Of a stretch of 40,238 nucleotides of DNA, positions 2,455 to 36,376 are shown piece after piece. The notes below the pieces were generated by a model. That model saw nothing but the letters and a program-made list of their open reading frames with translations. It did no database searches and was not told where the DNA came from. The number at the start of each line of letters is the position of its first letter. Position 1 is the stretch's first letter. The position numbers and the translations under genes are program-made. The DNA is taken from the NCBI GenBank assembly GCA_965661755.1, contig CBFIEZ010000001.1, forward strand, positions 1-40,238. Reading direction: 5' to 3'. The DNA is from Minisyncoccia bacterium (lineage in GTDB: Bacteria; Patescibacteriota; Minisyncoccia; Phycocordibacterales; DATDWN01).

Positions 2455-4471
2455 TTCTTCTCTCCTCAGAAACTAAAGCTAGAGACATGAGGGATGGGGT
2501 AGAAGATCCTGGACCAACTAACTCTGTCCTCCAAACTAACTCATAGAAGTCCTCATTTACATTATTAAACTCCATATCCCTTCTTGTTGTATCTGTAACA
2601 TTCCCTAAGTATCTCATGTTATGGTAGTTCTGGAATGAGAGTGTTGTATCTCCTGTTCCAGTAGCTTTTGTTAATGTCGCTGATGTTCCAACTGGGAGAC
2701 TTGGATTTGCTGTCCCAGATGTTCTTTGGGTGTAGACAACAGTAGATCAAGCATATAATGTAGTGGATATAACAGTATATGTAGAGCCATTATGTGTATA
2801 GGTTGCTCATACTGTTGGTGCTATTGTTGGTGGTGTACCAACTATGAATGAGAACTTATCAGTCTCATTATCCAACGCAGCATAGTATCTTAGGTAACAA
2901 TTAGAGTTTGGTAAGTAGTAACCGTATCTATGTCCTATGAATGCTTTGATAATATCAATATCACGACCATAGAAGACATCATCTACATATCCCCACATTG
3001 AGTAAACACTTGTAGATATGTATGGCGTAGAATAGAGGTATGAGTTTGTGCCACTCTTAGTTGCTATATATAATTTATCTCCATAAACACCCATTGCAGT
3101 AGGTGTACCAATTATATTTGTTGTCTTTGTAAGAGAGTCTGGGAAATCAGGATGATGCTTACCATATGTGATAATGCAGTCAGTTGCTAATATCCAAGTC
3201 AACATTCCAAAGTCAGCTGAAAGATTCTGTGTAGTAGCATTTAGATTCCCACTATTTGCTCATAGAAATTGTAATCTTCTATCTCACACAGCAGTGCTAT
3301 CTCTATAGAGGAGCTTCTTTGTATACCCATTAGAAAGCCATAAGTAGTTTTCATTGAGTGCTTTTGTGATAACAAGTTGATTATCTCCTGTATTGATTGA
3401 CTGCATAATTGTCTGATTCGGCCAGTCAGTTCCTCTAAGAGGTGCAAGACTCACACCATCCCATAAATAGGATTTCTTGCTAGTGTACACAATGATCTGG
3501 TCTCCCACCTTATGTAGACCTATGACAATTTCATTTGTATCAAAAGTTAGTGCTACCTCCGCAGAGTCAGCTCCATTTGTTGTGGAGTCAATTCTTAAGA
3601 TTTTATTTCCAAGACCAACAAATGCATCCCCAAAGAAGAAGAGAACTGGTCTTGTTGTGCTAGTGTATGATCCTGTAGTATATGTGATATAGTTCTCTGT
3701 GAACCCAGCAAGCGAGTCAATACGTACATCCAATATCTTTCCATTGTAGTCTGTACTTGGCACAAGTCTTATCTCATTGAGAGCATCAGTTGGACTAGTC
3801 CCAAAGAAGTACACCACTCCATTGTTTGAACTGCTAAGAGATCAAGTCAGAGGAACATTTCCACTTCCTGTACTTAAGAAGTTAGGAACACATGTTCCAA
3901 GTGTACATCCTGTATGCTGAATCCTAATCATATAATATGTGCTCACAGAAACACCACTTGTAAAAGGTCTAAGTGCTGATGTTCCAGATGAGTGTGTAAA
4001 TCATGGATTGTTGAAAGACCATCATCCACCAATAGACCAAGATCCACTAACAGATGCATCAGGATTAGTCACAACCTCTGTATAAGAGAATGTTGATGTA
4101 TCAAGTCTTCCTATATCAGACGTCCCCAGGAAGTAGTAATACTGTCCTATCTTGAAGCTATTATAGAGCTGTATATCATTTGCATCTGTAGATTTATACT
4201 TGTATACAATAAGATTTGTAGAAAGATCAATTATATACCCAAGAAGTGTTGTAGCATATCTATCATTTATATGGACGATTGTGTCTCCTACTACAAGATT
4301 AGAGAACTCTACACTTGCTATACTTGCAAGAGTGGTATACTTACTATTCCTTCTATGGTCTACATTTCTAGCATCATAAAAAGTCTTAGCAGGTCAAACG
4401 TACTTATCGTTTCTCATACCTCCTGTCCTATCAGTTGTTCTAATACCTACTACGGCTGATGGTGCTGTCAT
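2441..4471 (-). CDS. Large virion structural protein (676 aa), probably tail or baseplate associated
   Basis: ATG 4471 to TAA 2441-2443. It fuses ORF-track fragments 3284..3817 and 2807..3205 and their flanks across 8 in-frame TGA, checked codon by codon. Located downstream of the capsid and adaptor genes. Confidence 0.6.
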
Positions 4472-9004: not shown

Positions 9005-10549
9005 CTATAAGAGGTGTGAGAAATCCATTTGTGGTGCTTGGGCACTATCACTCTGGTCTCTATCTTTATCCCAGAATGTATAAGCTAATGCGTCTGCTAT
9101 GTCTGGAGATTTTCAAAACATCTTTTTCATATCCTCCTTGCTCATTATTTGTATCTTGCCTGCTAAGGTTCTCTTGTAGCGGATCATAGTAAGATCCTCA
9201 CGCCATAGCTTAGCATCTCCTACTAGTTGCCCACCTTTCCTAAGCCATTCAGCAAGTCTCCAGAAACATTCAGCACGTCTATTAAGGAATCTTTCCTCAT
9301 CCCATGCTTTGTCTCCCCAGTTCACACCATTCACATTTATTCTAGCTTGTGCAAGTTTGACTGCTACATTTGCACCAACTCCAAAGTTATCCACATATAC
9401 ATTATTGTGTGGGATGTTATAATGGACTATTGCTGTTCCTGTCTTCTCTGCTATAGAAAGCTCTGTACTTACTTTCTCACTAAACACTTGCATAGCACAG
9501 AAATTATCTCTTAGCACTCATTTGGTTTCATCAGATCATTCTCCTGCTGGATCAACTCCTAACTTCTTAAATCAAATGAACATCTGTTTAGGATCCGGCT
9601 CCATTGCTCTATAGTGGAGATCCTGTTCTAGTAAGAGTGGCACATATCATTTATCATCAACTCCATCTGATTTAGGAAACTCTCCAAGTACCATATATCT
9701 AAACTCATCACTATCCTCTCCATATTTCTCTTTAGCACGTTCTGCAAGATCCTTCACTACTGGGCTATCCAATCCATTGAACTGTAAGCATAACCAGTTC
9801 TTCCTATCACTATGGTGGCTATCATAGAAATATCCAATTAGTCTTGTGGGATTAGAAATCATAACCATAAGTGTGCTTCCACTAGTCATAGCTCCTTCTG
9901 CCTTTGTATAGATTATATCATCAACTCCAGAGGCTTCATCCACAAGTATACACACATCATCAGCATGTAGACCTGCAAGTGCTTCTGGATTGTCTTTCTT
10001 AGCTGTTTTTGCTCTAGCCCACCAATAATCCGGAGAGTCTTTCATACGTATATAATCGCTACTTCTCTCATACTGATCCTTGATGCTCTCAGGCATCTTA
10101 TCAAGCCATACTGCTATTTCAGTCCATAGGACATCTTCCATCTGTTCCTTGGTTGGTGCAGTACATCCAATTCTACATTTCTTGTGTGTGAACAAAAACC
10201 ACAAGAGAATCCAACTCATACATGTAGACTTTCCAATCCCATGTCAGCTTGCTACTGTGATCCTATTTGCTCACTTCTCTATAGAGATAAGGATAAGCCG
10301 CTGTTGCCATGTGATATGCTTTCCTTTCTCAAACTCTCCAAACATATCAACAGTAATCTCTTTGACTCTTTCTTTATAATCAAAAAGAGAGAGACTTAAG
10401 ATCTCACTAATGAATCATATGTATTCATTTTTGATAGGTTGTGGTCTAAGTCCCCATACTAGCTCTATGAAGTATATGGGAGACTGTTGTAGTCTTAGAT
10501 AGGTGGCTACTTCTTGTTCAAGTCTTTTGTTTTCGTCTTGGTTATCCAT
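9005..10549 (-). CDS. terL: Terminase large subunit (514 aa)
   Basis: ATG 10549 to TAG 9005-9007, with 8 in-frame TGA. Walker A VAS[TGA]HGIGKST, Walker B-like ILVDEASG, and nuclease-domain motif LGVDPAGE[TGA]SDET. Confidence 0.85.
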
Positions 10550-10925: not shown

Positions 10926-11438
10926 TTACCTTTTGATACCATAGAATCTAAAGTCATTTTTATAGTAGCTTATTCCATACTCACTAAACTTTTCCTCCCA
11001 ATCAAACATCTGTACATCTCTAAGTCATACATTGTAGTAGTAGTCTGTTGTGTAAGGGCTATCAGCTGGGCTTGTTCTCTTTGTCCCATGTTCTGCTCTA
11101 CCAGCACCAGCACAAGTAACTAGAAGTAATCCTCCTGGCTTCAATAGCTTTACCATGTTATGAATCGATTGTCTGAAATACTGATCGTGCTCTAACATCT
11201 CTGTAGATACAACCACATCATACCTTCCATAATCTGTCCACTCATGGACTGGAGACACAATATCAACATTAGGTCATTCCCCTATATCCATCCCAGTATA
11301 TTCACTATATGGGAAGTGTTGCTTGTTGTTCCCATTGATGTCCATGCTTCCAACATCCAAGACTCTTAGCCCAGCCAAGAAGAACTCTGGATGCTTCACT
11401 TTCATATCCTCTATGTATTGGATGACATTTTGGTGCAT
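10926..11438 (-). CDS. Class I SAM-dependent methyltransferase (170 aa)
   Basis: ATG 11438 to TAA 10926-10928. Motif I RVLDVGS, post-I GMDIGE[TGA]PNVD, and LKPGGLLLV. Confidence 0.6.
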
Positions 11439-11440
11439 AC

Positions 11441-11656
11441 TTAGGTGGTTGATGGTAAAATATATAAGTCTGGCAAGTTTTCTCTCCTATACTTGCCCAT
11501 AGCCTTTTCAAAGTTATCAATAGCAACATACCACTCATCACTATATTCAGCAAATGAGGAGATCTTATTCTCAAGATCATCCCACTCCTTTATAGCCTCA
11601 TCAGGTACTAGATATTGGTGTGAGCTCTCATCATACTTTATGTGTACCTTTTGCAT
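11441..11656 (-). CDS. Hypothetical protein (71 aa)
   Basis: ATG 11656 to TAA 11441-11443. Tightly packed between the GT2 and methyltransferase genes. Confidence 0.45.
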   Translation of the reverse strand: MQKVHIKYDESSHQYLVPDEAIKEWDDLENKISSFAEYSDEWYVAIDNFEKAMGKYRRENLPDLYILPSTT

Positions 11657-11657
11657 G

Positions 11658-12320
11658 TTATCTCCAGTTGTTCTCATCTAAAATCTTCTCCCAGGTCTTA
11701 GCATCCTGTTCCATCCAGTAGCTTACCTTCTTGTAGTTAGCTTCTTGCTGTTTCTTGTTTATGGTTTTACTATTCACTGTTTGACTCTCATAGTGTCTTA
11801 TACTTCCACCTCGCCCTACATCCTTTTGAGCCTTATGGAAAAGCCAATTATCATTGTAGAAGATCTTGAGTCTATCATCTATTGGGAATAGACTCTTAGA
11901 TCTTCTGAACATGAAGCAAAACCCATCAATCCCCACATCTCCATTGTTCATGTTGAGCTTCTCCTCATGTCTACGGAAGAAGTATGGGCAAGCTATTGTG
12001 TAGATGTCTGCTAGAGCCTTAAGAAAGCTAATTGTCTTAGGGTTCTGGAACTTGATGTCATTGTTGATAACCATGATATACTCTCCATGACTTTCAGCTA
12101 CTCCTCTATTCCAAGAGTAAGTCACACCTCTATTCTTGTCATTCTTAAAGTATCTAAGATTATCTATGTTCTTTTCTGCTATCCATTCCTCTGTCCCATC
12201 AGTGGATCAGTCATCAACAACTACAATCTCATAAGGCTCATCCATAAAGAGCTTAAGATTGTCTATGATTTGTTTAGTTCGGTATAGTTCGTTGTAAACT
12301 GGTATCACTACACTTATCAT
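11658..12320 (-). CDS. Family-2 glycosyltransferase (220 aa)
   Basis: The N-terminus MISVVIPVYNE...EIVVVDD[TGA]STDGT is the classic GT2 signature. The TGA at 12207-12209 sits on the invariant Gly of DDGS. Confidence 0.8.
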
Positions 12321-13084
12321 ACATTGATATTAGGGCTAAAGTGTGTCTTCATCTGCAATACTTCTTGCTTGCCATAATGTGCAACCTCAGCCTTAAGATT
12401 AGCATATACTTTGTATCATAGATCCTTGCATCTCTCAAAGAAACATAGATCTTCTGATATACATCTTTGCACCTTCTTAATGTTCCCATTCTCTACTTGG
12501 TATTGTGTCTCCCATCCTTCATGTTGATCTTGATGGAGATATTGCTCAGGCTTTCATGTGATGAGGTTGTTGACCCAATATTGGATCTGAAACTCAAAGC
12601 ATTGCCCTTGGTGTGTAAGGTACATCCTATCCACAACATCTCTACTTATGAGGACACATCATGTCCCACAGTTCTCTACCTCAATGATAGGCTCTTTATA
12701 GGTGCTTATATCTGTGATATGAGACTTAAGTCACTCATCATTAAAGCTAAAGATATTAGTAAGCTGATCCTTTGCCTCCTGGTGTCTAAGTGGAACTACT
12801 CAAGTCACAATGTCTTTGTCTGATTCTAAGAGGAGCTTTAGAGTATCAAACTGTGCAATCTGGTCATCATCGAAAAACCATATGTAGTCACAATTCTCAA
12901 TCCTAGATCTCTCTAGCAAGAGATTCCTTGCATACTGTACAGGCTGGCGTTCTACTATCGATATATTGTCAAAGACTAGCTCATATCACTCAGGGATCTC
13001 CTGATGCATGATGCTAAAGAGAACCCTTGGCTTTATACTTCCTGAACCAGAAGGAATCGCTACCATTACCTTTTTCTTTCTCAT
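12314..13084 (-). CDS. GT2-like glycosyltransferase (256 aa)
   Basis: VMVAIPSGSG, FFDDD (DxD), NCGT[TGA]CVLISRDV and EDLCFFERCKDL[TGA]YKV. There are 6 in-frame TGA, checked codon by codon. The start is ambiguous: 13084, 13144 or 13201. Confidence 0.65.
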
Positions 13085-13221
13085 TGTGCCATTTGCAATA
13101 AGCTGTAAATCTATCGATCTCATATTGTCTATAGTGGAGATCATTATTGTATAGTGCTTGGTAGAGATCTTGGATCTGCTTAATGAGTCAATCCATATCA
13201 ATCTTCTTAGTTCATAGGATT

Positions 13222-13806
13222 CTATACTCTTTCCACTTCAATCACTTTTCCTCAAAGGTTCTCACTATCTCCAATGATATTAGATGGGGATATTTCTTTA
13301 TCTTCTTCATGTGCTTCCGCATCACTTCCGGGAGTGCCGTGTTCAATCGCTTTTCTTCTTTCTGCTTCATCTGCAATGTGTGATAAACTAAATACTTTTA
13401 CATTGATGTTCTTAGTTTCCTCTGATATATGCTTGAGATTCCAGTCACTAAACTTCCTCTCTATAATCCATGCATATCTTTGCCATCCTTTTTCATCCCA
13501 TTGCATCTTTCTAAAGAGCTTTTTCTTCTGTATGAATATGGCTGTTGCATAAAGAGTGAGAAACTTCTGCAACCTTGGCTCAAGTTCCTCATATTTCTTA
13601 GTATTGACTTCTACCTTATATGCTCTGAATGTGTCATAGCTTACAGTGAGCATTGGATCTATCTTTTTGACTCTTTTATTTACTTCAAAGTAGAGATCCT
13701 CATCAGTCATTATTATGGCGTTTATGTCATCATTAACGACCTTTTCAAACTCCTGTAATCGATACACACTTAGTTTCTTTGGTCTTCCATTCTCTGTAAC
13801 TCACAT
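13222..13806 (-). CDS. terS: Putative terminase small subunit (194 aa)
   Basis: N-terminal M[TGA]VTENGRPKK followed by an HTH-like segment and ..WQRYAWIIERKFSDWN, a pattern typical of small terminases. About 2.7 kb separates it from terL. Confidence 0.45.
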
Positions 13807-13807
13807 A

Positions 13808-14467
13808 TTATCTCTTGCAGTGTAAAAGATGTGTCCTATCTAATGGATCATTGTCTATTAGCTTAACATCGAATCATTGTTTCTCAAAGCCTCACATTAG
13901 ATTGTGCACACTTCATACTCATGTCATAAACTCATGTGTCTCAAACATCATCTCATTTACGGTATCTGGGACTATCATGTCTCTAAACATCTCTATCTCT
14001 CATCCTTCACAATCGCATTTTATCTTAGTAATGCCATATGTCTCAATAAGGTGCTTGATTCATACTGCTGGCACTTCTACCTTCTCATCTCCTTCAAAAG
14101 GCATAGTAGTATTGTGTCATCCATTGATTCATATAGTGAGAATTGTAACCCCATCTTCTTTTGCTCATGCAACTGGTAGTGCCATTACATTCTCAATACC
14201 ATTTACTTTAAGATGCTGGAGTAGAAGATCATAGTTGTGCTTATATGGCTCTAATGTAATAACTTGTTTTACTTTGTCAGCTACATAGATGTCGTAACTT
14301 CCAATATGTCATCATATGTTGAGTACCTTATCCTCTTTGTTGTAATCCATCTCATAGCATCGATCTATGAGGACTTCTTTTAGGACATATTGCTCATCTG
14401 TTCATGGTGTAAAGTAGAATATCTTTCAGTCTACCACTGCTTTTCTTCTTCCTTCTTCTATGCCCAT
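13808..14467 (-). CDS. FkbM-family SAM-dependent methyltransferase (219 aa)
   Basis: VLNI[TGA][TGA]HIGSY, a Gly-rich SAM motif with tandem TGA at 14309-14314, plus ITKIKCDCEG[TGA]E. There are 13 in-frame TGA and no in-frame TAA/TAG. Confidence 0.65.
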
Positions 14468-17208: not shown

Positions 17209-17904
17209 TTAAGGGTGTTTAGGTTTCTTTGCTTCTAGTTGGGCTATCTTCGCTTCCCAATGTTCGAAGGCATCTTTTGTCATAAATTGTCGCGTATCAA
17301 AATTGATCGTGTACTTATCGATCTCAATTTGCTTTACTGCATCTTCTCCAATTTTTTTCACAAGGTTCTTCCTATAGAGTGCTTTACATTCATTAGCAAC
17401 TTCCATTCATCGCTTACCAGACATCTTTCCATTACAGTCCTTACATTGAAAGTTTATATTATCGAGGTTGAAGGCTACTGATCCTTTCCCTCTTGATTCA
17501 TAATGTCATCCACATCATCCATCCTTTTCCCAGAACATCCTTTTAGCACAACATATGCAATATCCATAGCCATCAGCAAATGTGTCTCTTAGCCTCACAT
17601 ACTTTTGGAGCAAGACTAGCATTTCTTCTTTACCTCTTGGAGCTACTTTTTTCTTATATTGTACTATTTTGTGACCTTTCTCTGCTCTGTGTATATTCTT
17701 TATCTCTTTTTCCATTTTATCATTGAGTTTCTTAGTCCATCTATCTACTTCCTTCTTGCATCTCTCTTTCCAATATTTACCTCTGTTAATACATTCCTTC
17801 TTTTTCTTCAAACAAAAACGCAATGTTATCTCTCTTTTCTTTTGGAGCATCTTACTCTTATATTCACGCTCCACCTGATCTTTAGTTTTAAGTTTTTTCT
17901 TCAT
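17209..17904 (-). CDS. NinG/Rap-like recombination protein (231 aa)
   Basis: It fuses 17515..17919 and 17209..17406 across 3 in-frame TGA. Pattern: LRD..ADGYGYCICC....GGHYESRG..AFNLDNINFQCKDCN. Confidence 0.5.
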
Positions 17905-17916
17905 ACGAAAAATGCC

Positions 17917-17931
17917 CACAATTAAATTGTG
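17917..17931. promoter_or_regulatory. Perfect 15-bp palindrome, operator-like
   Basis: CACAATT-A-AATTGTG, 13 nt upstream of the NinG-like ATG. Confidence 0.35.
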
Positions 17932-17961
17932 AGTGCAGTGTTTCTTTTATGTGACAAAACT

Positions 17962-17989
17962 ATGATATAAAAAACGGCTTATTTTACAA
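17962..17989 (-). promoter_or_regulatory. Candidate sigma-70-like promoter for the minus-strand arm
   Basis: On the minus strand: TTGTAA, a 16-nt spacer, then TATCAT, upstream of the first minus-strand gene. Confidence 0.35.
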
Positions 17990-18076
17990 TACTAAAACAA
18001 AAGGTTATCGTCCAATTTGGAGTTTAGATTGTATTTACCATTTACATTTCTAGAGTTTTGCAGTCACATAAATTAT

Positions 18077-18457
18077 ATGCCGTACTCATTTTTAGCTGGT
18101 AACAAGCCAACTATGATAAATGAGGTACATAATTTATGCTATTATTTAGAAATTGTTAGATATGCCAGTCCAGAGACGATAAGAAAATATAAATTATATC
18201 TTACTATGTTTTTTAGGTATATAAAGAAGCGTGGTATATATGATGTGAGTGATATAAAATTAAGCCTCATAGAAGACTATAAAAAATATCTATATAAGTA
18301 TTATAACGATAGCACCACGGTAAAAGCCATATCCAACCTAAGATGATACTTCAAATATAGAGCAATAATAGATGCACCATTGATCCATTATGAAAGAATT
18401 GAAAACATAAAAAGTCCTTATTGATACTACCATAAAACACCCATATTTTATAGCTAA
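18077..18457 (+). pseudogene. Tyrosine-recombinase (integrase) relic: only the N-terminal SAM-like core-binding domain is present
   Basis: ..YASPETIRKYKLYLTMFFRYIKKRGIYDVSDIKLSLIEDYKKYL......TVKAISNLR[TGA]YFKY matches the XerC/D-type N-terminal domain. The ORF stops at TAA 18455-18457, before any catalytic domain. An alternative start is at 18113. Confidence 0.55.
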
Positions 18458-18578
18458 ATGTCAATTATAGGAGAGATTTTCTTTTATTTGTGACATAATT
18501 TATTCAGTTGTATATCTCTTAGATCGTGCTTAACGACTCATTTTTCATATTCTCAATAAAAAATCATGTAATTTAGAT

Positions 18579-18607
18579 TTGACGTGTGACTATGTTTCGG
18601 TTAAGAT
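18579..18607 (+). promoter_or_regulatory. Sigma-70-like promoter
   Basis: TTGACG, a 17-nt spacer, then TAAGAT. The spacer contains a TGTGAC motif. Confidence 0.45.
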
Positions 18608-18613
18608 AGTATC

Positions 18614-18827
18614 AATATCAAGTCACGAGAAAATATATAGTTTACCGGTAGAATACAAAAACCCTCTAACCGGAGAGGATATAGCTTTGCACCTTAACTC
18701 CCATTAACCATGGGTCTTATATCTTGTGCACACCTGAGCGACGGACTGTCCCAATGTGCACTAGAGGTGCTAATCTAGATCCCATAACTTATATGACATC
18801 GTACTTGGTAGAGTGCGGTGTTTTTTT
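18614..18827 (+). ncRNA. Candidate structured leader or small RNA 1 (about 210 nt)
   Basis: It lies between the promoter at 18579 and an intrinsic terminator. Helices: CCTCT/AGAGG, GCACCT/AGGTGC (long range), CCCAT/ATGGG, GTGCAC/GTGCAC. No ORF. Confidence 0.4.
18797..18827 (+). terminator. Rho-independent terminator
   Basis: CATCGTACT-TGGTAG-AGTGCGGTG forms a 9-bp stem (2 G-U pairs) and is followed by T7. Confidence 0.6.
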
Positions 18828-18834
18828 ATGTGAC

Positions 18835-18959
18835 AATAAACAATGCCAAGCACAAATCTAATCCGTCCCAGTAAGACCGCTCAAAGAAAGGACAAATAAG
18901 AGGATTAGGTCGACGGAAGATAAGCGGTCTTAGGTCTAATACTCTTATTTGTTTTTTTT
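18835..18959 (+). ncRNA. Candidate structured RNA 2 (about 125 nt)
   Basis: Two crossing helix pairs, CCGTC/GACGG and AAGACCGCT/AGCGGTCTT, give a pseudoknot topology. They lie partly inside the loop of a long terminator hairpin. Confidence 0.35.
18892..18959 (+). terminator. Rho-independent terminator with a long hairpin
   Basis: Perfect 11-bp stem ACAAATAAGAG/CTCTTATTTGT, extended by ATTAG/CTAAT, followed by T8. Confidence 0.6.
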
Positions 18960-19031
18960 AAGAGTGTCTAGTCATGTCTAGGAGTTTTCAACACTCCCCA
19001 CTACCCTTTACCTTTATACCCATGTTAATAG

Positions 19032-19181
19032 ATGCAACACGATGAGCAAATGGAATTAGATCCAGAACAAGAGCTAGAGGCTCAACAACAAAGTAACTAT
19101 GAAGATGAGACAGAAGAAGAGTTCAACAGGAACAATGCAAGGTTGGACATCCCTACTCTTAACGAGAGGCTATCATGCTAA
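19032..19181 (+). CDS. Small acidic protein (49 aa), first ORF of the early arm
   Basis: ATG 19032 to TAA 19179-19181. E/Q/D-rich. Confidence 0.35.
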   Translation: MQHDEQMELDPEQELEAQQQSNYEDETEEEFNRNNARLDIPTLNERLSC

Positions 19182-19292
19182 GCAGGACACTCCTCTCCCT
19201 CTATCTAGCTAAGCTATCATATGGTGCTCTCGATCATGGGCACACACTGATACTCTACAGCTACATCCTAATGATGACAATTATGCTTTATT

Positions 19293-19595
19293 ATGCTTAC
19301 AAACACTCCCATGCAAATCAGTGAAAAAGACAAAAAAAGGTACATCACAATTGTAAAGTTATTCTCCAAAGGAGATAAGAAGAACTACATAGGCTATGAT
19401 AAGAAGAACAACGCCTATGACATACAAACATTTTGGTATGTACCAAACTCCCCTCGTTGCAGACATGGTGGAAGATGACCTACAATATGTCATCCATATC
19501 AGATTATCACACAAGGATGATTTGTATACAGCCGAAATGCAAAGAAGGATGTTTACTCTCCTACAACCCAACACTTCATACTCGATATAAAGTAA
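19293..19595 (+). CDS. Hypothetical ORF (100 aa under table 25); only its first half looks protein-like
   Basis: Frame-0 ORF open through 2 TGA to TAA 19593-19595. It overlaps the frame-1 ORF 19396..19590. Confidence 0.25.
19396..19590 (+). CDS. Hypothetical ORF (64 aa), an alternative frame to 19293..19595
   Basis: ORF-track ORF. Its composition is more natural than that of the overlapping frame over this interval. Confidence 0.3.
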   Translation: MIRRTTPMTYKHFGMYQTPLVADMVEDDLQYVIHIRLSHKDDLYTAEMQRRMFTLLQPNTSYSI

Positions 19596-19621
19596 TATTT
19601 ATCTCAATCATCTACCAGGTT

Positions 19622-20410
19622 ATGGCAAAACAAAGAGTAGTTAAAACATCCTTCTGGTCAGATCAATATATTGAGACATTGCCCTCAATGATAAGATACT
19701 TGTTTTTATACCTGCTAACCAATGAGTCAGCAAACCTCATATGAATATATGAGCTAAGTATAAAGAGAATGGTCTTTGAGACATGACTCTCTGAAACTGA
19801 TGTAGATGAAGCACTAAAGAAACTAGAGAAAGATGAAAAGGTGTTCTATTTGGATAACCGAGTGGTGTTCAAGAACTATCTGAGGCATCAATCCATGAAC
19901 CCATCAGTTGTACAAGGAATGTTACGTGAAAGAGAGTTGCTACCTACAAAGTTAATAGAGCGTATAGAGTCTGATGACAGGCTGTCTACAGCACGGTACA
20001 CTTTACTTAACTTAACCTTACCTAACTCTACTCAACCTAAAGGTAGTACAGAGTTGTTTGAAAAGTTTTGGATTGCTTATCCAAGAAAGGAAGCAAAAGG
20101 GAATGCTGAAAAATCATTTATAAAGTCTTTAGAGAAAACAGACATAGAAAAAATCCTTACTTGAGTTGAAAATTACATTGTAAGGATCCGCAAAGAAAAG
20201 ATTGAAAAACAATTTATAAAACTACCAGCCACTTGGCTTAACCAGGAGTGTTGGAATGATGAGAGCAAAGTAAAGATCCCATCAGCTCCTCCACCTAGAG
20301 TGGAAGAAGATCCGCCTCCTCCACTATCAGAACTAACTCCAGAACAAAAGAAAGCAAGGATGGATGCAATAGCGAAAACAAGAGCTAATTTACATGCTAA
20401 AATCACATAA
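19622..20410 (+). CDS. Replication organizer/initiator, DnaD-like (262 aa)
   Basis: It fuses 19433..19744 and 19841..20164 and their flanks across 3 TGA. N-terminal KTSFWSD..I..L and a C-terminal FEKFWIAYPRKEAKGNAEK....LPATWLNQECWNDE motif. Confidence 0.55.
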
Positions 20411-21278: not shown

Positions 21279-21572
21279 ATGGAAGGAACTAGATTATTTG
21301 ACAAGTTGTATGATGCAGGAACTGAAACTCTCAAGAAGCTCTCTAAGCCACTAAAGGAAAGAAGTCTCAAGAGAAAGTTCCAAAGTTGTTTTGATGATGC
21401 TACTAAGAAAATGGAAGATGCTGAATTGGCAATCAATGATCTCCAGGAGAACCTTGACACCTATGACATCAACAAGATCTTAGAGTACAAGCTAGTCATA
21501 AAAGACTGCAAAGAGCTCAAGAATGAAATTGCTGAGGAGTACAAAACACTCTTTGGAGAAGAAATCAACTAA
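21279..21572 (+). CDS. Hypothetical protein (97 aa)
   Basis: ORF-track ORF ending in TAA followed by TAA. No TGA. Confidence 0.5.
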   Translation: MEGTRLFDKLYDAGTETLKKLSKPLKERSLKRKFQSCFDDATKKMEDAELAINDLQENLDTYDINKILEYKLVIKDCKELKNEIAEEYKTLFGEEIN

Positions 21573-21578
21573 TAAACT

Positions 21579-21719
21579 TCTATCCCTATTTGGGGTAGAT
21601 GACGAGAGAATGCTGAAAGAGCCTTGGGACTAGGGATGCATACCTTATTTCATTAGAGGACTTTGATCCTGGCGAGCCTATTCTCTCATCATCTACCTTC
21701 ATGGTAGTTTTATATTCTA
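21579..21719 (+). ncRNA. Hairpin-flanked structured RNA cassette A, a degenerate tRNA-derived element
   Basis: 5' hairpin TCTATCCC/GGGGTAGA. Then an 18-bp closing stem GGTAGATGACGAGAGAAT/ATTCTCTCATCATCTACC with one mismatch, enclosing about 66 nt. Then a 3' hairpin CTACC-TTCAT-GGTAG followed by a T-rich tail. Confidence 0.35.
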
Positions 21720-21734
21720 TACTCCCTATACGAG

Positions 21735-22331
21735 ATGAGAAAACAACAGAATGATGTAACGTATGTAACTATTAAGAACAACAAAGACGAAAATCCAAAG
21801 CCAAGATTCTACATTGAGGATGTTGACTACAGTAGCATCTCAGGAGAACTTGTGTCTATCTGAACTGAAAGAAAAGAAATCACTCCTACAACTGGAGAAA
21901 ATGCATGAAAGAGAATTACCATCCACAATCTTCTGCTAGGAATAGTAGACCATGATGGAGAGATGCAGGTACAAGTATCACTCTATTCATCACTTGCTAG
22001 AAATGCTATCAATGCACTAGCTGGACCAGATGAACTATGAGAGGTGTTCTTATCTGTTTACAAGAACAAGAACGGATTTAGATGTATGTCTGTTAAAAAG
22101 TCAGAGGGCAAAGAAGACTGGTATACACCATTCTATGACCGAGAGACAGAAGCAGGAATGCTTGAAACTAAAACTGAGAAAGGAGAAGAAAAGAAAGATT
22201 ATGATAAATTGACTGATAAATATGTTAAAGAGCTCATCCCTATCATCATTGAGAAGATAGAGAAAAGAGATGCAACAAAACCATCATCAGAAGTTGCTGA
22301 TGATTTATCTAATGATGACCTACCATTCTAA
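21735..22331 (+). CDS. Putative ssDNA-binding protein (198 aa)
   Basis: 3 in-frame TGA, checked. The acidic C-terminal tail ends in ...SNDDLPF, the SSB-type interaction tail. It lies in the replication module. Confidence 0.5.
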
Positions 22332-22990: not shown

Positions 22991-23419
22991 ATGAAGAAAG
23001 AAAAAATTGCTCCAAAGATAGCAGTATTGCTAAAAACTCAAGATGAATATGACCTCTATATGAAATGGGCTGAAAAGAAGTGATATAAATGGGCTACTTG
23101 AGCTGTACCAACAGAAGGAAATGAGTGGACAGAGTTTAAGAATGAGACTGTTGTGGTATGTGGAGACACATTATCATATGGAGGAAGCAGCCAGGCTTGC
23201 TTTGACTGATACACTATTCTCTCTCTCAAGGAAGCTACAGGACTCAAAGCAAAAGTGACTTATGCTGTTGGATATGTGAGAAATGATGGAACAAGATTTA
23301 CTAAAAATACTATTGATAGTGTTGAAGTAAGCATCTTGGAGACATCACTAAAGCATCATTCAAGTGAAGCAAAGAGAATAAATGCATTACTTAGAGCTCA
23401 TAGAAACTTGAAGTTCTAA
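22991..23419 (+). CDS. Hypothetical protein (142 aa), paralog of 20771..21271
   Basis: 3 in-frame TGA, checked. The shared N-terminal block includes a TGA at the same aligned position (EKK[TGA]YKW versus ERN[TGA]LMW). Confidence 0.5.
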
Positions 23420-23445
23420 CTCTATCCCCTACTAGGGGTAGAAAT

Positions 23446-23530
23446 GATTGGTATAGCTTATTGGGGTAGAGCGTGCAGTGCACAATCAAACAGGAAAAGC
23501 AAGAGGTGGGTTCGAGTCCTACTACTAATC
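23446..23530 (+). ncRNA. tRNA-like element B, which lacks an anticodon arm; it sits in a hairpin-flanked cassette spanning 23421-23560
   Basis: Acceptor stem ATTGGTA/TACTAAT (extendable to 8 bp), D arm GCT-TATTGGGGTAG-AGC, and T arm GTGGG-TTCGAGT-CCTAC are all canonical. The 33 nt between the D and T arms form no 5-bp stem with a 7-nt loop at any register. The flanks are homologous to cassette A. Confidence 0.45.
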
Positions 23531-23573
23531 ATCTCTACCTTTATGGTAGCTTTACATTCTAATCTGTATTCAG

Positions 23574-23906
23574 ATGGAAAAAATTAAACAAATTATCAAA
23601 AGACCAGCCTTTATTGGTGTATGTATCTTCCTTGGTATGCTAGGGTGTGGTATGTGGTATGGAATTGCATTGTGAAATGCAAGAGCAAAAGATGACAAGC
23701 CTATTGATCCGGTCACTATCAATAATGCAAGAATCAATGAGATAGACCACTCAATACAAGACAACACTAAGACAATAAGCGATGCCCAAACTATCATTGA
23801 TGCACAAACCAAGATCAAAGACAATGCATCTAGTGGTAGCAAAGCACTTATCATAGAGAAGGAGAAGCTATTAGACGCTAATGCAAAGATTATCTCCTCA
23901 AAATAA
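23574..23906 (+). CDS. Membrane-anchored coiled-coil protein (110 aa), possibly lysis-associated
   Basis: N-terminal TM segment, one TGA. It lies immediately upstream of the lysozyme-like gene. Confidence 0.4.
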
Positions 23907-24485: not shown

Positions 24486-25559
24486 ATGTCTAATTATATG
24501 TTCAAATATATCTGGAATCTAAGAGATTCAGTTTTCACGAAGGATAAAGGGAAGGTATTTAGTTGTTTTGCTTGTGGTGGAGGCTCTACAATGGGCTACA
24601 AACTGGCTTGATTTGATGTCATTTGATGCAATGAGATCGATAAGAAGATGATGGACTGCTATGTGTCCAATCATCATCCGAAATACAACTATTTGGAAGA
24701 TATTAGAGTTTTCAAGGATAGGGATGACCTGCCTGAGGAGCTCTACCATTTAGACATTTTGGATGGCTCTCCTCCATGTAGTAGTTTCTCCATGGCTGGG
24801 AATAGAGAGAAGGACCGATGAAAAGAGAAAAAGTTCAGGGAATGACAAGAACTCCAAACTCTAGACAATCTATTCTTTGACTTCATAGAGCTTGCAAAGA
24901 AGCTCCAACCTAAAGTGGTAATAGCTGAAAATGTGAAATGATTGCTCATCTGAAATGCAGTCGACTATGTGAAAAGGATCTACAAAGACTTCAATGAGGC
25001 ATGATATGAGGTGGAACACTACCTGCTCAACTCCAAAGATATGGGAGTACCACAAGCAAGAGAAAGAGTCTTTTTCATAGCTATTAGAAAGGATCTAATA
25101 GCATGAATGGGCTTGCCATCAATTGATATGTTCAAGAACTACCCTCAACTAGATCTTACCTTCAATGAGAAGGAGATCCCCTATGAGGAGATAGAAAACA
25201 AGGAGAAAGAGTTTGAGGAATGAAAGCATATCCCTGAATGAATACTCCCCTTTTGGGAGCAAATCAAACCAGGGAGGAGTTGTTCAGACGTACACCCTAA
25301 GTGACATTACTTCCAAGAGCTCAAACTTCATCCTAAAAAGCCTCTCCCTACTCTTAGGGCATGAAGCAATAGTTACTACCACTATGAGAAGCCAAGAAGA
25401 CTATTTAATGATGAGATCATCAAAGGACAATCCTTCCCTAGTGATTATGACTTTAGGAAATCACAACCAATCTACATTTGTTGAATGTCAGTTCCTCCTG
25501 TAATGGTGGCACAAATAGCATCTAGAGTCTACAGCCAATGGCTTACCAAGATTGCATAG
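24486..25559 (+). CDS. DNA (cytosine-5) methyltransferase (357 aa)
   Basis: Motif I FACGGG..G..LA[TGA]F; motif IV GSPPCSSFS; motif VI AENVK[TGA]LL; motif VIII QARERVF; motif X C[TGA]MSVPP. 13 in-frame TGA, checked. The start could be up to 36 nt upstream. Confidence 0.85.
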
Positions 25560-25576
25560 CACTTATTTTATTCTTT

Positions 25577-26182
25577 ATGAAACGTGTAATGTTTAACGCA
25601 CATAAACTATTCACAGGTATTGCAAAGCTCTTTGAGCCTAAAAAGAAGAAGTATGTAAAAGGTGGAAAAAAGTATATCCCAAGACCCAAGAGATCAAAGT
25701 ATGAAAAGTATTGGGTAAATCAAAAGATCCCCTTCTCTGAAATCCCAAAAGTAAAGGAATTAAGAAAGACTCATACTCTCCAGGAAATTGCTGACATATA
25801 CCAAGTTAGTAGAGAGAGAATAAGACAAATATGCTGAGGTAGAGTCCTAAATGTTAAGAAAGAAACAAGAGAAAAATTGGAAGAAATAAGGAAGTATGCT
25901 AAAACTCACACACTTAAAGAGATCTATGATAAGTACCATGTAACAGCACAAACCCTCAAGCATCACAATATGGAGTATATTGTTACGAAGAAGATCTATG
26001 AGATATTTGATGGGTATGACCTTATAGGTCTCCTAGAAACATACACATACAAAGAAGTAGCCCAGATGTTCAATGTGTCTATCTGAAATGTCCAATATGC
26101 AAGAGATGTAATACTTGGATTAGGGAAGAGATCAGGCACTTTATCATCTAAAAAGGCTAAATGAAACTCAAACTTATCTTAG
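25577..26182 (+). CDS. DNA-binding protein with three sigma-70 region-4-like HTH repeats (201 aa)
   Basis: HTLQEIADIYQVSRERIRQI, HTLKEIYDKYHVTAQTLKHH and YTYKEVAQMFNVSI[TGA]NVQYAR. 3 in-frame TGA. The 3' end overlaps the next gene by 22 nt. Confidence 0.55.
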
Positions 26183-27447
26183 ACACGCCTAATTACTGTG
26201 CAACAGTAGTAAAGGTCAACAATCTTATTCCACTTGCGTGATGTGATAATGTAGTATGATTCTCTATATTTGGCTTCCAGGCAATTGTAAGTAAAGATAC
26301 TAAGATAGGAGATTATGGGATTATATTTACTGCAGAAACCCAGTTATCTGAGGACTTCTGTAAGAAAAATAATCTCTATAGACATGCCGGATTAAATGAT
26401 GACCCAACCCAAAAAGGTTATGTAGAAGACAATAGGAGGGTGAAAGCTATGAAGTTCAGAGGACACAGATCCTCTGCTCTCTTTATGCCTCTCCAGTCTC
26501 TACTCTATATTCCCTCAACAGAATGAGAGGAGTTTGAGGAGTGAGTGTCTTTCAATCATCTTAATGGTGTAGAGGTTTGCAAAAAATATGTTGTTCATAC
26601 TAGAGAGGGAAGACAAAATCATATAGCTGGGAAGACAAAGAAGTTTGAAAGAATAGACTGCAAAACCTTCCCTGAGCATCTTGATTCTGACAACTACTTT
26701 AGGAATGCCCATATGTACCAACCAGGAGATCAGATCATTGTAACACAAAAACTCCATGGGACATCAGGTAGATTTGGAAACGTGAAAGTAAGGAGAAAGC
26801 TATGACTCTTTGAAAAGATCCTCAAGAAGCTATGAGTGAAAATTAGTGAGATAGAATATGACTACATAGCAGGATCTAGGAGAGTTATTAAGGATGCAAA
26901 ATCAGAAAGAGAGTTCACTCACTACTACTCCTCTGATGTGTGGAATGAGATGCTTGAAAAGATCAAGACCCTCATCCCTAAAGACTACATCATCTATGGA
27001 GAGATTGTAGGTTGGACAGGAGAGAAACCAATCCAGAAGGGGTATACATATAAGATCCCTAAGTGAGAGAATGAGCTCTACATCTATAGGATCTCTATTG
27101 TGAATGATGATGGAGTTGCAACCGATCTTTCATGGAGTGCTATCTTGCATTTCTGTGAGATGACAGGTCTAAAGGCTGTTCCTACCTTTGAGATAATGAC
27201 ACATGAAAAGTTTGAGGCATCACAATTCCTAGATAAGATATTTAGTGAGATGTACCCTCAAGCACTTCCTTTGGATCCAGAGTCTCCATGTGATGAGTGA
27301 GTATGTCTAAGAAGGGAATCTTTATTGCCATATATCACTAAAGCAAAGTCTCCGAACTTCTTTGAGTTTGAGTCTAAGCAACTTGATACATGAGAAGAAG
27401 ATATAGAAAGTTTAGAATCTAATACACCATCACTTGATGATAAATAA
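26161..27447 (+). CDS. RNA ligase, Rnl2/RNA_ligase-family nucleotidyltransferase (428 aa)
   Basis: Motif I TQKLHGTSGRF (K-x-H-G), YGEIVG, motif IV CDE[TGA]VCLRRE, motif V TKAKSPNF. 9 in-frame TGA, checked codon by codon. Confidence 0.7.
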
Positions 27448-28012
27448 TTTTGATTCTTTTGGGTTTGAGTTTGTAGAGTGAGAGTTTTATTTCTTCCAGA
27501 TTCTTGATAGAAGTAAGTCTGGAGGAAATAACAAAACCCGCTGTATCAAGTCATATTATATCGACAACCAGGAGTTCTTTGACAAGAAGAAACCTGAGAT
27601 GATAGAGCTTGCTGATACAACAAAGAGCAGAGTCTATGTCCATCCGGCCAGGAGAAGGAAAGACAAAATAGCTCTTGAACTCCTCTCCTATGTTGCTGAC
27701 TGCATAAATTATGGGGAGCTAGATAGGGTCTGGAGATGATATGAAACTGTTTGTTGAAGAAACCATGGAGTCAAAAAGATGTGGATTGTGGATGTAGATA
27801 GCAATGAAACAGTAGAGGTAAGAAATGCTATTGCTCATATTAAAGACATCCAACCATTCAGAGTGCCTGCAAAGATAGTCAACACAGTCAATTGAGTGCA
27901 TCTCATATATGAGGGATGATTTGATAGGACAAAGTACAAGCTGAAATGGGATATACAGACCAATAATCCAACAGTTATTTATTCCTCAGAAACTCCAAAA
28001 TGAGAGCTATAA
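27437..28012 (+). CDS. Hypothetical protein (191 aa) wedged between the RNA ligase and Pnkp genes
   Basis: It overlaps the ligase gene by 11 nt and the Pnkp gene by 13 nt. 6 in-frame TGA, checked. Motifs WIVDVD and N[TGA]VHLIY. Function unknown. Confidence 0.5.
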
Positions 28013-28872
28013 TACTCAAAGGAATCCCCTCTTGTGGGAAAAGTACAAAGGCTATAGAGCTAGAAAAAGAGTGATATGTCAGAATCAATAGAGACACAAT
28101 TAGAGAAGAAAATCCTGATATGTCTGAGGATGATGTAAGGCACTACAAAAATAGGATGATAACAGATGCTCATGCTGCAGGCTTGAATATTGTAATTGAT
28201 GACACAAACATCAATCCAAATACCCTAGAAAAAACAAAGAAGTTCCTAGAGGCTCTTGCATATGAAACAGAGGTCTTTGATTGCTTTGATGCTGTAATAA
28301 AGGAATGGATAGATGCTCCAGTAGCTCTAGGACAATGTATCACTTGGAACACTAAGAGAGAAAAGTATGTGCCGGAGAGTGTGATATATGACATGTACCT
28401 CCAGGATGATAGGCTCTTAGATAAGAAAGATGTTGTGATTATAGATCTAGATGGGACTCTCTACAATATCGATCATAGATTAGAGTTTGTGACTAATGGA
28501 AAAAGAGATTGGGCACAATTTGAAAGCCAAGAAGAAATAGCAAAGGATCAGGTCTATGATGCTGTAAAGAAAGTAATTACATCACTCTATAACAAATATA
28601 GCATCATCCTTCTTAGTGGTCGTAAAAATAAGAATTGCAAGCAAACTGTAGCCAATCTTGAAAGAGATGGGATCAAATATGATGCCCTCCTAATGAGACA
28701 AACATGGGATAGCAAACCTGACTACCAAGTGAAGCAAGGATTTGTAGATCTCATCAAGAAAAACCACAACATCCTCTTTGCCTTTGATGATAGAAAGCAA
28801 GTGATAGATATGTGGAAGAAAAATGGAGTGTATGTGTTCAACTGTTGTCAAAAAGAAAGTAACGATTTTTAA
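28000..28872 (+). CDS. Polynucleotide 5'-kinase/3'-phosphatase, T4 Pnk-like (290 aa)
   Basis: N-terminal P-loop KGIPSCGKST and C-terminal HAD phosphatase motif IIDLDGTLYN...SGR...FDDR. One in-frame TGA. Confidence 0.8.
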
Positions 28873-30689: not shown

Positions 30690-30696
30690 ACTAAAA

Positions 30697-30727
30697 AAGA
30701 CCCCCTTAATGGAGAGTCTTTTTTTAT
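30697..30727. terminator. Bidirectional terminator at the convergence of the two arms
   Basis: An A-run, then the imperfect hairpin AAGACCCCC-TTAAT-GGAGAGTCTT, then a T-run, between the last plus-strand gene and the last minus-strand gene. Confidence 0.45.
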
Positions 30728-36344: not shown

Positions 36345-36373
36345 AAAAAGAGTAGGGATTATCCTACTCTTTT
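36345..36373. terminator. Bidirectional rho-independent terminator
   Basis: AAAAA-AGAGTAGG-GATTAT-CCTACTCT-TTT: a perfect 8-bp stem flanked by an A-run and a T-run. Confidence 0.6.
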
Positions 36374-36376
36374 CTA

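Follow-up and report, generated by a model that had tools for sequence, protein, structure and literature searches.

The window analysed here, a stretch of 40,238 nucleotides (nt) from contig CBFIEZ010000001.1, holds between two divergent gene arms a phage control cassette. The cassette consists of a rightward promoter (P_R) followed by two structured leader RNAs, RNA1 and RNA2, that end in the terminators T1 and T2; a leftward promoter (P_L) with a short leader and its terminator (T_L); three copies of a repeated module; and a gene for a stand-alone core-binding (CB) domain protein. On balance, this is probably a bidirectional cassette in which the P_R leader places two consecutive cis-acting conditional terminators before the early and replication genes. 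Because the first 77 nt of the window recur at its end, the window represents a complete circular phage genome of approximately 40.16 kb. The leftward arm, from 17904, encodes NinG, methyl- and glycosyltransferases, terminase, portal and structural proteins, and the rightward arm, from about 19293, encodes a replication initiator, a methyltransferase, an RNA ligase and a polynucleotide kinase.

Genetic code and layout of the cassette

The genome uses genetic code 25, in which TGA specifies glycine. Under the standard code, the window is almost devoid of long open reading frames (ORFs); when TGA is read through, stop-free stretches of at least 200 codons increase from 6.9 to 35.8 kb. TGA is found at conserved glycines, such as those of the cytosine-methyltransferase motif ENVK-G-L and the terminase P-loop, and TGA in the gene at 18113-18457, both in the window and in its relative L072, is GGA in the relative L077. 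Code 25 has been described in Absconditabacteria and Gracilibacteria, and also in many phages that infect them (PMC10746230), and the host of this phage presumably belongs to one of these two groups. An earlier note on this DNA had applied the standard code, wrongly, so that its gene calls were fragments. It had also treated the region as purely regulatory; a real gene occupies 18113-18457, while the RNA region indeed lacks conserved ORFs under code 25. Overall, each element listed in that note lies at the coordinates given there; the observation is in part confirmed and its interpretation in part supported, with the genetic code and some details corrected.

The main elements of the cassette are as follows; those of RNA2 and of the repeated module are given further below.

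17908-17933, minus strand: T_L, intrinsic terminator of the leftward leader, before the NinG, packaging and structural genes; hairpin of 8 pairs, then U5
17962-17989, minus strand: P_L, sigma-70-like promoter, TTGTAA-16-TATCAT
18113-18457, plus strand: CB-domain gene, 114 amino acids (aa), tyrosine-recombinase N-terminal SAM-like domain; two in-frame TGA codons (Gly)
18579-18607, plus strand: P_R, sigma-70-like promoter, TTGACG-17-TAAGAT, 9/12 to consensus
18614-18827, plus strand: RNA1, leader of ~214 nt
18616-18629, plus strand: Block I, the 5ʹ end of RNA1
18688-18730, plus strand: conserved core of RNA1, helices Py and Px and the near-invariant stretch GGTCTTRTATCTTGTG
18800-18809, plus strand: 3ʹ strand of helix P1, overlapping the 5ʹ half of T1
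18795-18827, plus strand: T1, stem at 18795-18822 with 12 pairs, then U7
18828-18959, plus strand: RNA2, ~130 nt

Relatives were reached by protein searches followed by contig look-ups, which yielded six related contigs, all of them Logan assemblies: L072 and L077, and L086 to L089, found by an exhaustive HMMER search with the small CB protein. With the window, these make seven, and the samples behind the contigs are ERR15116721, SRR25008499, SRR29078112, SRR29078148, SRR29078108, SRR12022142 and SRR12486992. The six relatives hold the cassette whole or in part on phage backbones that are otherwise divergent; portal proteins are 25-27% identical, and L088 has a different leftward gene and replication genes of another type. 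Within the cassette, the CB protein is 57-62% identical at the amino acid level in L072, L077 and L088, and the RNA region is ~70% identical at the nucleotide level. Since the cassette is kept far better than the backbone, it behaves as a mosaic regulatory module, and the CB protein appears to be the only protein that travels with it.

Searches further afield returned little. A blastn search against GenBank phages gave no match, and scans of IMG/VR, JGI metagenomes and GTDB genomes with four exact patterns from invariant stretches gave nothing or chance matches in unrelated coding regions (L078-L083). Seventy IMG/VR loci with distant homologues of the replication protein had neither DNA similarity nor a match to the RNA2 covariance model, a profile search with NinG and the CB protein added just two more proteins at non-syntenic loci (L084, L085), and of the exact-protein look-ups, one gave only an identical 2.5-kb fragment (L071) and another gave nothing. 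The earlier note had proposed an Rfam scan and a covariation analysis of related contigs. Scanned against 4227 Rfam families at gathering and permissive thresholds, the window, L072 and L077 gave tRNA only, with no match in the control region at E ≤ 10 and none in L072 and L077 at E ≤ 1; RNA1 and RNA2 thus match no catalogued family. The covariation analysis found the helices kept with compensatory changes. Because MAFFT alignments misaligned the covarying helices, pairs were counted with a purpose-written script anchored on helix ends.

Two leader RNAs ahead of the early genes

Promoter-like sites are about as frequent in the window as expected (18 versus 14.5), and P_R by itself is no better than chance. 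Its layout recurs at the same position in all seven contigs: a -35 element, a spacer of 16-17 nt, a -10 element, and then 7-8 nt to Block I. The -35 hexamer is variously TTGACG, TTGCAT, TTGCAA, TTGTAT or TTGACA, and the -10 hexamer TAAGAT, TATACT, TATACA or TATAAT. The promoter that the earlier note had placed at 18579-18607 is therefore present and conserved in position.

The same note had described ~210 nt of structured RNA ending in a strong intrinsic terminator downstream of this promoter, and RNA1 bears this out. Its folding relative to shuffled sequences reaches z = -4.46 in the window and -4.47 and -3.0 in two relatives, and it ends in the 12 pairs of T1 with a run of seven T. Block I, at the start of the transcript, is complementary to 18800-18809, which comprises the 5ʹ half and loop of T1, and the resulting helix, P1, is the best partner of Block I within RNA1 in every genome (-11 to -14 kcal/mol). 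P1 is present with compensatory changes in six of six contigs. In the three genomes tested, its duplex has an energy of -11.6 to -12.5 kcal/mol compared with -5.7 to -8.6 kcal/mol for the next-best site (shuffle p 0.001-0.009). The two strands vary jointly, as CAAG:CUUG, CGAA:UUCG and UGAA:UCGA, and read as follows in four of the genomes.

Window: AUCAAGUCACG : CGUACUUGGU
L086: UGUUGAAUUGCG : CGCAACUCGACA
L087: UAUCGAAUUGUG : CACGUUCGAUA
L088: AUCAAGUUGUG : CACAUCUUGAU

RNA1 of L088 is rearranged, with the promoter and Block I unit lying just 34 nt before T1 and the conserved core upstream, and P1 is still kept. Because T1 (-13 to -18 kcal/mol) and P1 share 5-9 nt, the two structures are mutually exclusive. 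P1 is thus a conserved alternative helix that takes up nucleotides of the terminator stem, as in an expression platform. Between its strands lie a second closing helix, which differs in each genome, an optional hairpin and the conserved core, in which Py is invariant, Px shows compensatory changes in three of five columns, and the stretch GGUCUURUAUCUUGUG is near-invariant. No Rfam match assigns RNA1 to a described class of aptamer. Its architecture appears to be that of an ON-type transcriptional riboswitch or attenuator, with the response to a ligand itself a prediction. The riboswitch-like leader that the earlier note had listed among its options accordingly fits RNA1, given the P1/T1 alternative.

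Several further observations concern RNA1. In L088, the rearranged RNA1 (2810-3016) contains a second, good promoter-like site, TTGTAT-16-TATAAT, with its -35 element inside the conserved core, and Block I lies in a local hairpin. In L077, a site TGCACA-18-TATAAT (10/12) directly follows the RNA1 core. A T-box-like UGGN bulge was considered and rejected, as it is absent in L077.

RNA2 is the second element that the earlier note had recognized, as ~125 nt with crossing helices and a terminator with T8. This description holds, and the terminator stem is in fact 13 pairs long, 11 of them Watson-Crick. The parts of RNA2, all on the plus strand, are as follows.

18863-18867 with 18912-18916: helix A*, crossing the T2 hairpin
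18872-18881 with 18923-18932: helix B, crossing the T2 hairpin
18890-18902 with 18942-18954: T2 helix C, 13 pairs, 11 Watson-Crick
18904-18911 with 18933-18940: T2 helix A', 8 pairs
18952-18959: T2 U-tract, T8

The strands follow one another in the order A*, B, C, A', A*', B', A'', C', so that A* and B cross both each other and the hairpin. Folding relative to shuffles is modest (z = -1.98). The support for RNA2 lies in its conservation: in the five genomes that have RNA2, every position of the four helices forms a canonical pair (100%) even though the sequences are largely unrelated, whereas controls with a slid partner are 7-73% paired. Counted over three genomes, compensatory columns number 8/10 for B, 9/10 for C and 2/5 for A*; changes in A' are one-sided only, opposite the invariant GGAUU(A/G)GG. 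A' abuts A*' by 0-1 nt in five of five genomes, and B' abuts A'' by 0 nt in three of five. The G-U pairs occur solely in the plus-strand reading, which argues for RNA rather than DNA. A covariance model of RNA2 recovers L072 (62 bits) and L077 (25 bits), and T2 escaped the terminator scan because the loop limit of that scan was 8 nt. Topologies of the hepatitis delta virus and twister ribozyme kind were rejected, since the helix order does not fit them. The pseudoknot topology is thus correct and well supported by these comparisons. Non-conservation of the structures in relatives, which the earlier note had named as evidence against its reading, was looked for and not found, either for P1 or for the RNA2 helices.

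Downstream of RNA2 lie the first early genes and one further conserved block, all on the plus strand.

18965-18997: conserved block after T2, TGTCTAGTnnTGTCTA..GGAGTTTTCAACA, with a small AGGAG..CUCC hairpin
19032-19181: variable ORF of 49 aa, start of the early arm
19293-19595: ORF of 100 aa, conserved in L072
19622-20410: replication-initiation or replisome-organizer gene

The first early ORF that the earlier note had placed at 19032 is present; its 49-aa product is not conserved in the relatives checked. That note had found no convincing promoter between T2 and the early genes, and a scan of the plus strand from 18960 to 19621 agrees, giving no promoter-like site of at least 9/12. In L086 and L088, the first early ORF begins 9 and 8 nt, respectively, after the T2 U-tract. 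A promoter of its own would not fit into so short a gap, and transcription therefore has to pass through T2. The suggestion that early transcription depends on read-through is thereby supported. The first early ORF of L088 is homologous to that of L077 (38% identity, E = 3e-11), and the first ORFs of the window and L077 have no match in L072.

The ~30-nt block after T2 occurs in the window, L072 and L077. It is missing from L086 and L088 and is thus dispensable. It contains two TGTC repeats 11 nt apart, stands at a constant 38-39 nt from the first ATG in the three genomes despite first ORFs of differing length, and includes a GUCUAGU that could pair with the invariant GGAUUAGGU of RNA2. A further hairpin-like element, GGGG..ATTAGGYT..TACGTTAAGCCT..TGGTTTGTA..CCCC, is conserved between L072 (8915-8980) and L077 (11305-11365), where it separates the first early ORF from the following gene. 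Both its outer and its inner stem covary; the window lacks it, and it matches no Rfam family.

Read-through could in principle also come about without a regulator, if a folded part of RNA1 or RNA2 bound the polymerase and made it resist T1, T2 and later terminators, as in the processive antitermination of the HK022 put RNAs that the earlier note had invoked. The near-invariant core of RNA1, ~18 nt long, would suit such a role, and a structured RNA just downstream of an early promoter, followed by terminators, is the general put layout (PMC9378689). Put RNAs form a similar pair, one per divergent operon, each of ~70 nt with two stem-loops (PMC9378689). No such pair exists here: RNA1 is a multi-helix domain of ~214 nt without an Rfam match, the 54-nt leftward leader is essentially a terminator, and the RNA2 covariance model finds no second copy, only its own reverse strand. 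The overlap of P1 with T1 is that of a local switch rather than a polymerase modifier, and the patescibacterial polymerase may differ from the enterobacterial target. Few internal terminators downstream call for processivity; genome-wide, strong coding-strand terminators are confined to the three leaders and to operon ends, which points to local gates. Beyond the leaders, the only strong ones in the genome are those at 30693-30724 and 36345-36374, with 12-13 pairs and A-run/T-run flanks, where transcription units meet. A put-type mechanism is accordingly very unlikely.

The leftward leader, the repeated module and the CB protein

The leftward arm begins with a promoter-leader-terminator unit of its own. 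Every relative has a counterpart of P_L, TTGNNN-16-TANNNT, with its -10 element exactly 5 nt from the module (five genomes by scan, L072 and L089 by eye), and this fixed spacing predicts a leftward transcript start near 17956. T_L would be reached after ~24 nt of that transcript and ends a few nt before the NinG ATG at 17904, so that the leader measures 54 nt, most of it terminator. It was called as a minus-strand terminator in the window, L072 and L077. Like T1 and T2, T_L has a stable G+C-containing hairpin with an immediate U-tract. Its stem differs between genomes and yet remains paired in 18 of 18 cells, with compensatory changes in four of six columns. A perfect 15-bp palindrome had been noted at 17917-17931; the position is right, and since the stem sequence varies while pairing is kept, the palindrome is the stem of this covarying terminator before the late arm rather than an operator. 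In L077, ~220 extra nt (9626-9850) lie between T_L and the NinG start. This insert is strongly structured, includes a plus-strand terminator-like hairpin at 9817-9834 and may be another small RNA.

The earlier note had also reported a TGTGAC(A/T) motif at four sites. Those at 17950 and 18829 are conserved, those at 18489 and 18585 are not, and an inverted copy at 18062-18069 had been missed. As such, TGTGACW is not enriched in the window (18 versus 17.7 expected); the 8-mer ATGTGACW occurs three times in 40 kb, always in this region and once on the minus strand. The motif is the 3ʹ end of a module of ~26 nt, GAGTGC(A/G)GTG followed by a T-run and ATGTGACAA, present in three copies per genome.

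17931-17957, plus strand: copy 1, GAGTGCAGTGTTTCTTTTATGTGACAA
18062-18087, minus strand: copy 2, inverted and more diverged, just upstream of the CB-domain gene
18811-18836, plus strand: copy 3, GAGTGCGGTGTTTTTTTATGTGACAA; spans the 3ʹ half of T1, then the U-tract and 9 nt beyond it

Copies 1 and 2 form an inverted pair 107-110 nt apart, with gaps between the arms of 107, 108 and 107 nt in the window, L072 and L077; copy 2 is also found in L088 and L089. The copies evolve in concert, being alike within a genome (over 29 nt, L077 has the same sequence in copies 1 and 3), and the last part differs between genomes, as ATGTGAC, ATACGAC, ATAGGAC, TGTTAGAC, ATATAGC or ATGTAGC. The module fits two readings, as a set of operators for the CB-domain protein, whose binding is putative, or as a means of RNA-RNA coupling between the leaders.

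The coupling reading follows from position. The predicted leftward transcript opens with ~26 nt that are the reverse complement of copy 1; with copy 3 carried by RNA1 that has been read through, early RNA and late leader share ~26 nt of complementarity that ends at or inside the T_L stem. Cognate module duplexes have energies of -37 to -49 kcal/mol compared with -16 to -30 kcal/mol for non-cognate ones, and the seven transition differences between copies 1 and 3, by our own reading of the copies, are all in the direction that keeps G-U pairing. These features also lend themselves to the proposal that RNA1 and RNA2 are stand-alone small RNAs acting in trans, for example through pairing of the 3ʹ part of RNA1 with the 5ʹ end of the late leader. 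Both RNAs are discrete, strongly folded units that run from a promoter or terminator to the next terminator, and the 3ʹ half of T1, its U-tract and the following 9 nt are a near-copy of copy 1, hence complementary to the predicted start of the P_L transcript. However, the early ORFs of L086 and L088 begin so close behind T2 that this terminator is no pure endpoint, the full complement of the late leader is present only in read-through transcripts, and a plain small-RNA terminator leaves the conserved competition between P1 and T1 unexplained; the transition bias is equally expected from a U-tract and a G-rich 3ʹ half of a stem. Action as independent small RNAs is rather unlikely as the main role, and it would be compatible with the cis-acting model.

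The operator reading can be extended to the proposal that the conserved sequences act mainly as DNA, with the module copies and perhaps Block I serving as operators of the CB protein, or as origin or recombination sites, and the RNA helices as by-products. The three copies change together between genomes, as operators do with their repressor, the constant spacing of copies 1 and 2 amounts to ~10 helical turns, and copy 1 overlaps the predicted P_L start. A precedent is MrpR/YopR of SPbeta, a recombinase-fold master repressor that binds a repeated element, SPBRE (PMC10516654; PMC8612738). As there, the control region of a phage encodes, beside a repeated element specific to that phage, a recombinase-derived protein that lacks recombinase function (PMC10516654). 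MrpR comprises a core-binding and an inactive catalytic domain (~320 aa), whereas the protein here is only a core-binding domain of ~100 aa with no detectable sequence relationship to MrpR beyond the fold family, and module binding by it is putative. A DNA role leaves RNA2 unexplained, with its four helices paired in unrelated sequences, its one-strand G-U pairs and its U-tract, and likewise P1 with its bulges and G-U pairs. The operator idea is therefore a good one for the module only; as an account of the two RNAs, it is highly improbable.

Other identities for the motif or module were rejected. No -10 element lies at the right spacing for the motif to be a sigma-70 -35 element, and the proteins scanned include no phage RNA polymerase that would match a T7/SP6-type promoter. 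A dif site consists of two arms of ~11 bp with imperfect inverted symmetry around a centre of 6-8 bp. The right arm of the module, TTATGTGACAA, resembles the XerD arm of the dif consensus; by inspection, the left arm lacks a matching inverted CATAA element in every genome, and the module has no dyad symmetry, so that it was not taken to be a Xer/dif site.

The CB protein itself belongs to the tyrosine-recombinase N-terminal domains, matching Pfam PF02899 above the curated cut-off (E = 2e-8). A nonsynonymous to synonymous substitution ratio (dN/dS) of 0.16-0.23 indicates purifying selection. An AlphaFold model of the L077 homologue is a helical bundle whose best matches in the Protein Data Bank, with weak E-values, are recombinase N-terminal domains (3nrw, 2a3v, Cre, XerA). 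No remnant of a C-terminal catalytic domain (RHR-Y) was found in any frame of 18440-19640. The ORF ends at the same point in the window, L072 and L077, and the proteins of other close relatives are 101-182 aa long as called.

Proposed conditional termination and its significance

The promoters, terminators and helices described above, with their conservation and covariation, are observed, and so is the lack of space for a further promoter in two relatives; that termination in these leaders is regulated, and through which agent, we infer. In the proposed mechanism, P_R, a host-type promoter, would produce a leader containing RNA1 and RNA2, and only afterwards the early and replication genes. 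Block I, the initial ~12 nt of this RNA, would pair with the 5ʹ half of T1 and close a folded domain of ~170 nt around the conserved core. As long as P1 holds, T1 could not form and the polymerase would read on; once P1 is lost, T1 would terminate transcription. RNA2 would act as a second gate, at which the apical loop of T2 pairs with upstream sequence through two helices and the pseudoknot either accompanies or competes with closure of the hairpin. The leftward arm may follow a similar logic, with P_L, its leader and T_L before the late arm, and the CB-domain protein and the three-copy module would probably supply phage-specific control.

Several points weigh against this model. T1 is stabler than P1 at equilibrium, so the switch would need kinetics or a stabilising factor, and no ligand, protein partner or known aptamer was found for RNA1 or RNA2, Rfam being negative. 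Conservation of the middle domain of RNA1 is poor in its details, and L088 has this domain upstream of the second promoter-like site. The sequence of RNA2 is compatible with a pseudoknot that either favours or opposes termination. In the window, the distance from T2 to the replication gene is 660 nt, a stretch with small ORFs in which a weak promoter may lie. Only seven contigs from one collection are known, and because they are related, the covariation counts are not independent events. The host is uncultured, and the case is known from sequence alone.

The closest functional analogues of the cassette are leaders with a terminator and an antiterminator, together with the lambdoid arrangement in which each arm is headed by a promoter, a leader and a terminator. 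Like ON-type riboswitches and attenuators (the pbuE adenine riboswitch, the T-box), RNA1 directly follows its promoter, the 3ʹ strand of P1 overlaps the 5ʹ half of the terminator, and a folded domain with a conserved core lies between the P1 strands; two gates stand in tandem. By contrast, P1 here involves the extreme 5ʹ terminus of the RNA, the enclosed domain is variable and even displaced in L088, the seven examples are all from phages and have no Rfam match, and the second gate is a pseudoknotted terminator instead of a second aptamer of the same kind. The resemblance to lambdoid systems (HK022 putL/putR, lambda N-nut, and pR'-tR' with Q) lies in divergent operons that each have a promoter, a short leader and a terminator, in phage-specific repeated elements within the control region, and in a short terminated late leader, as with lambda 6S RNA at tR'. 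However, a scan of 42 proteins revealed no homologue of N, Q or put, RNA1 and RNA2 lack a leftward counterpart, and whereas nutL/nutR and putL/putR are identical copies, the module lies in opposite sense in the two transcripts, so that its copies are complementary.

The immunity of phage P4 (CI RNA) and of P1 and P7 (C4 RNA) works through short complementary leader segments and premature termination. The RNAs described here are similar in that complementary segments follow the same 5ʹ-to-3ʹ order (A*, B ... A*', B') and in the proposed use of premature termination to control the genes downstream. They differ in that the segments lie in a terminator loop and abut its stem, in the lack of sequence similarity, and in showing no sign of processing into a separate small RNA.

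A more far-reaching reading, speculative and distinctly unlikely, would make the cassette an RNA-centred early/late switch. RNA1 would be a new sensor domain for a ligand or protein, RNA2 a new class of pseudoknot-gated terminator, and the CB domain would act on the same module to set phage specificity. Only early transcripts that had been read through would carry the whole module and pair with the late leader up to or into the T_L stem, such that RNA-RNA pairing, rather than an N- or Q-type protein, would couple late expression to early transcription.

Elsewhere in the genome, the leftward arm carries, between its NinG end and terminase, a cluster of methyltransferase-domain and family-2 glycosyltransferase genes (10926-14467, minus strand), which the packaging side of a phage genome does not usually contain. 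In the rightward arm, paralogous cassettes at 21570-21740 and 23415-23580 have the same flanking hairpins, with CCCCTAYTWGGGG upstream and CTACCTTYATGGTAG downstream. The latter holds a tRNA-like gene (Rfam tRNA, 36 bits) that has a 22-nt insertion in the anticodon arm and was not called by ARAGORN; the tRNA-like sequence in the former is degenerate. The same arm encodes an RNA ligase (26161-27447) as well as a polynucleotide kinase-phosphatase (28000-28872). The gene at 25538-26182 encodes a protein of 214 aa in which three helix-turn-helix units, all of the sigma-70 region 4 type, stand in tandem. The earlier note had suggested testing the helix-turn-helix protein of the phage for binding to the motif. 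The fetched parts (~10 kb either side) of L072 and L077 contain no homologue, and judging from these two relatives, the protein appears to lie outside the conserved cassette.

Gene control in phages of candidate phyla radiation (CPR) bacteria is almost unknown, and the hosts cannot be grown. Against this background stands a compact cassette, carried on unrelated backbones, with two host-type promoters, three leader terminators, two uncatalogued RNAs and a stand-alone recombinase fragment. Reading such genomes with the standard code hides real genes in apparent control regions. Attenuation-type control is known in itself; what would be new here is its combination with two RNA folds that are missing from the catalogues, including a pseudoknotted terminator, in phages whose regulation is largely uncharted. 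Tests of each RNA would require little more than purified polymerase and a few hundred bases of synthetic DNA, and if the two are indeed conditional terminators, they would represent new families of regulatory RNA and possibly a new sensor.

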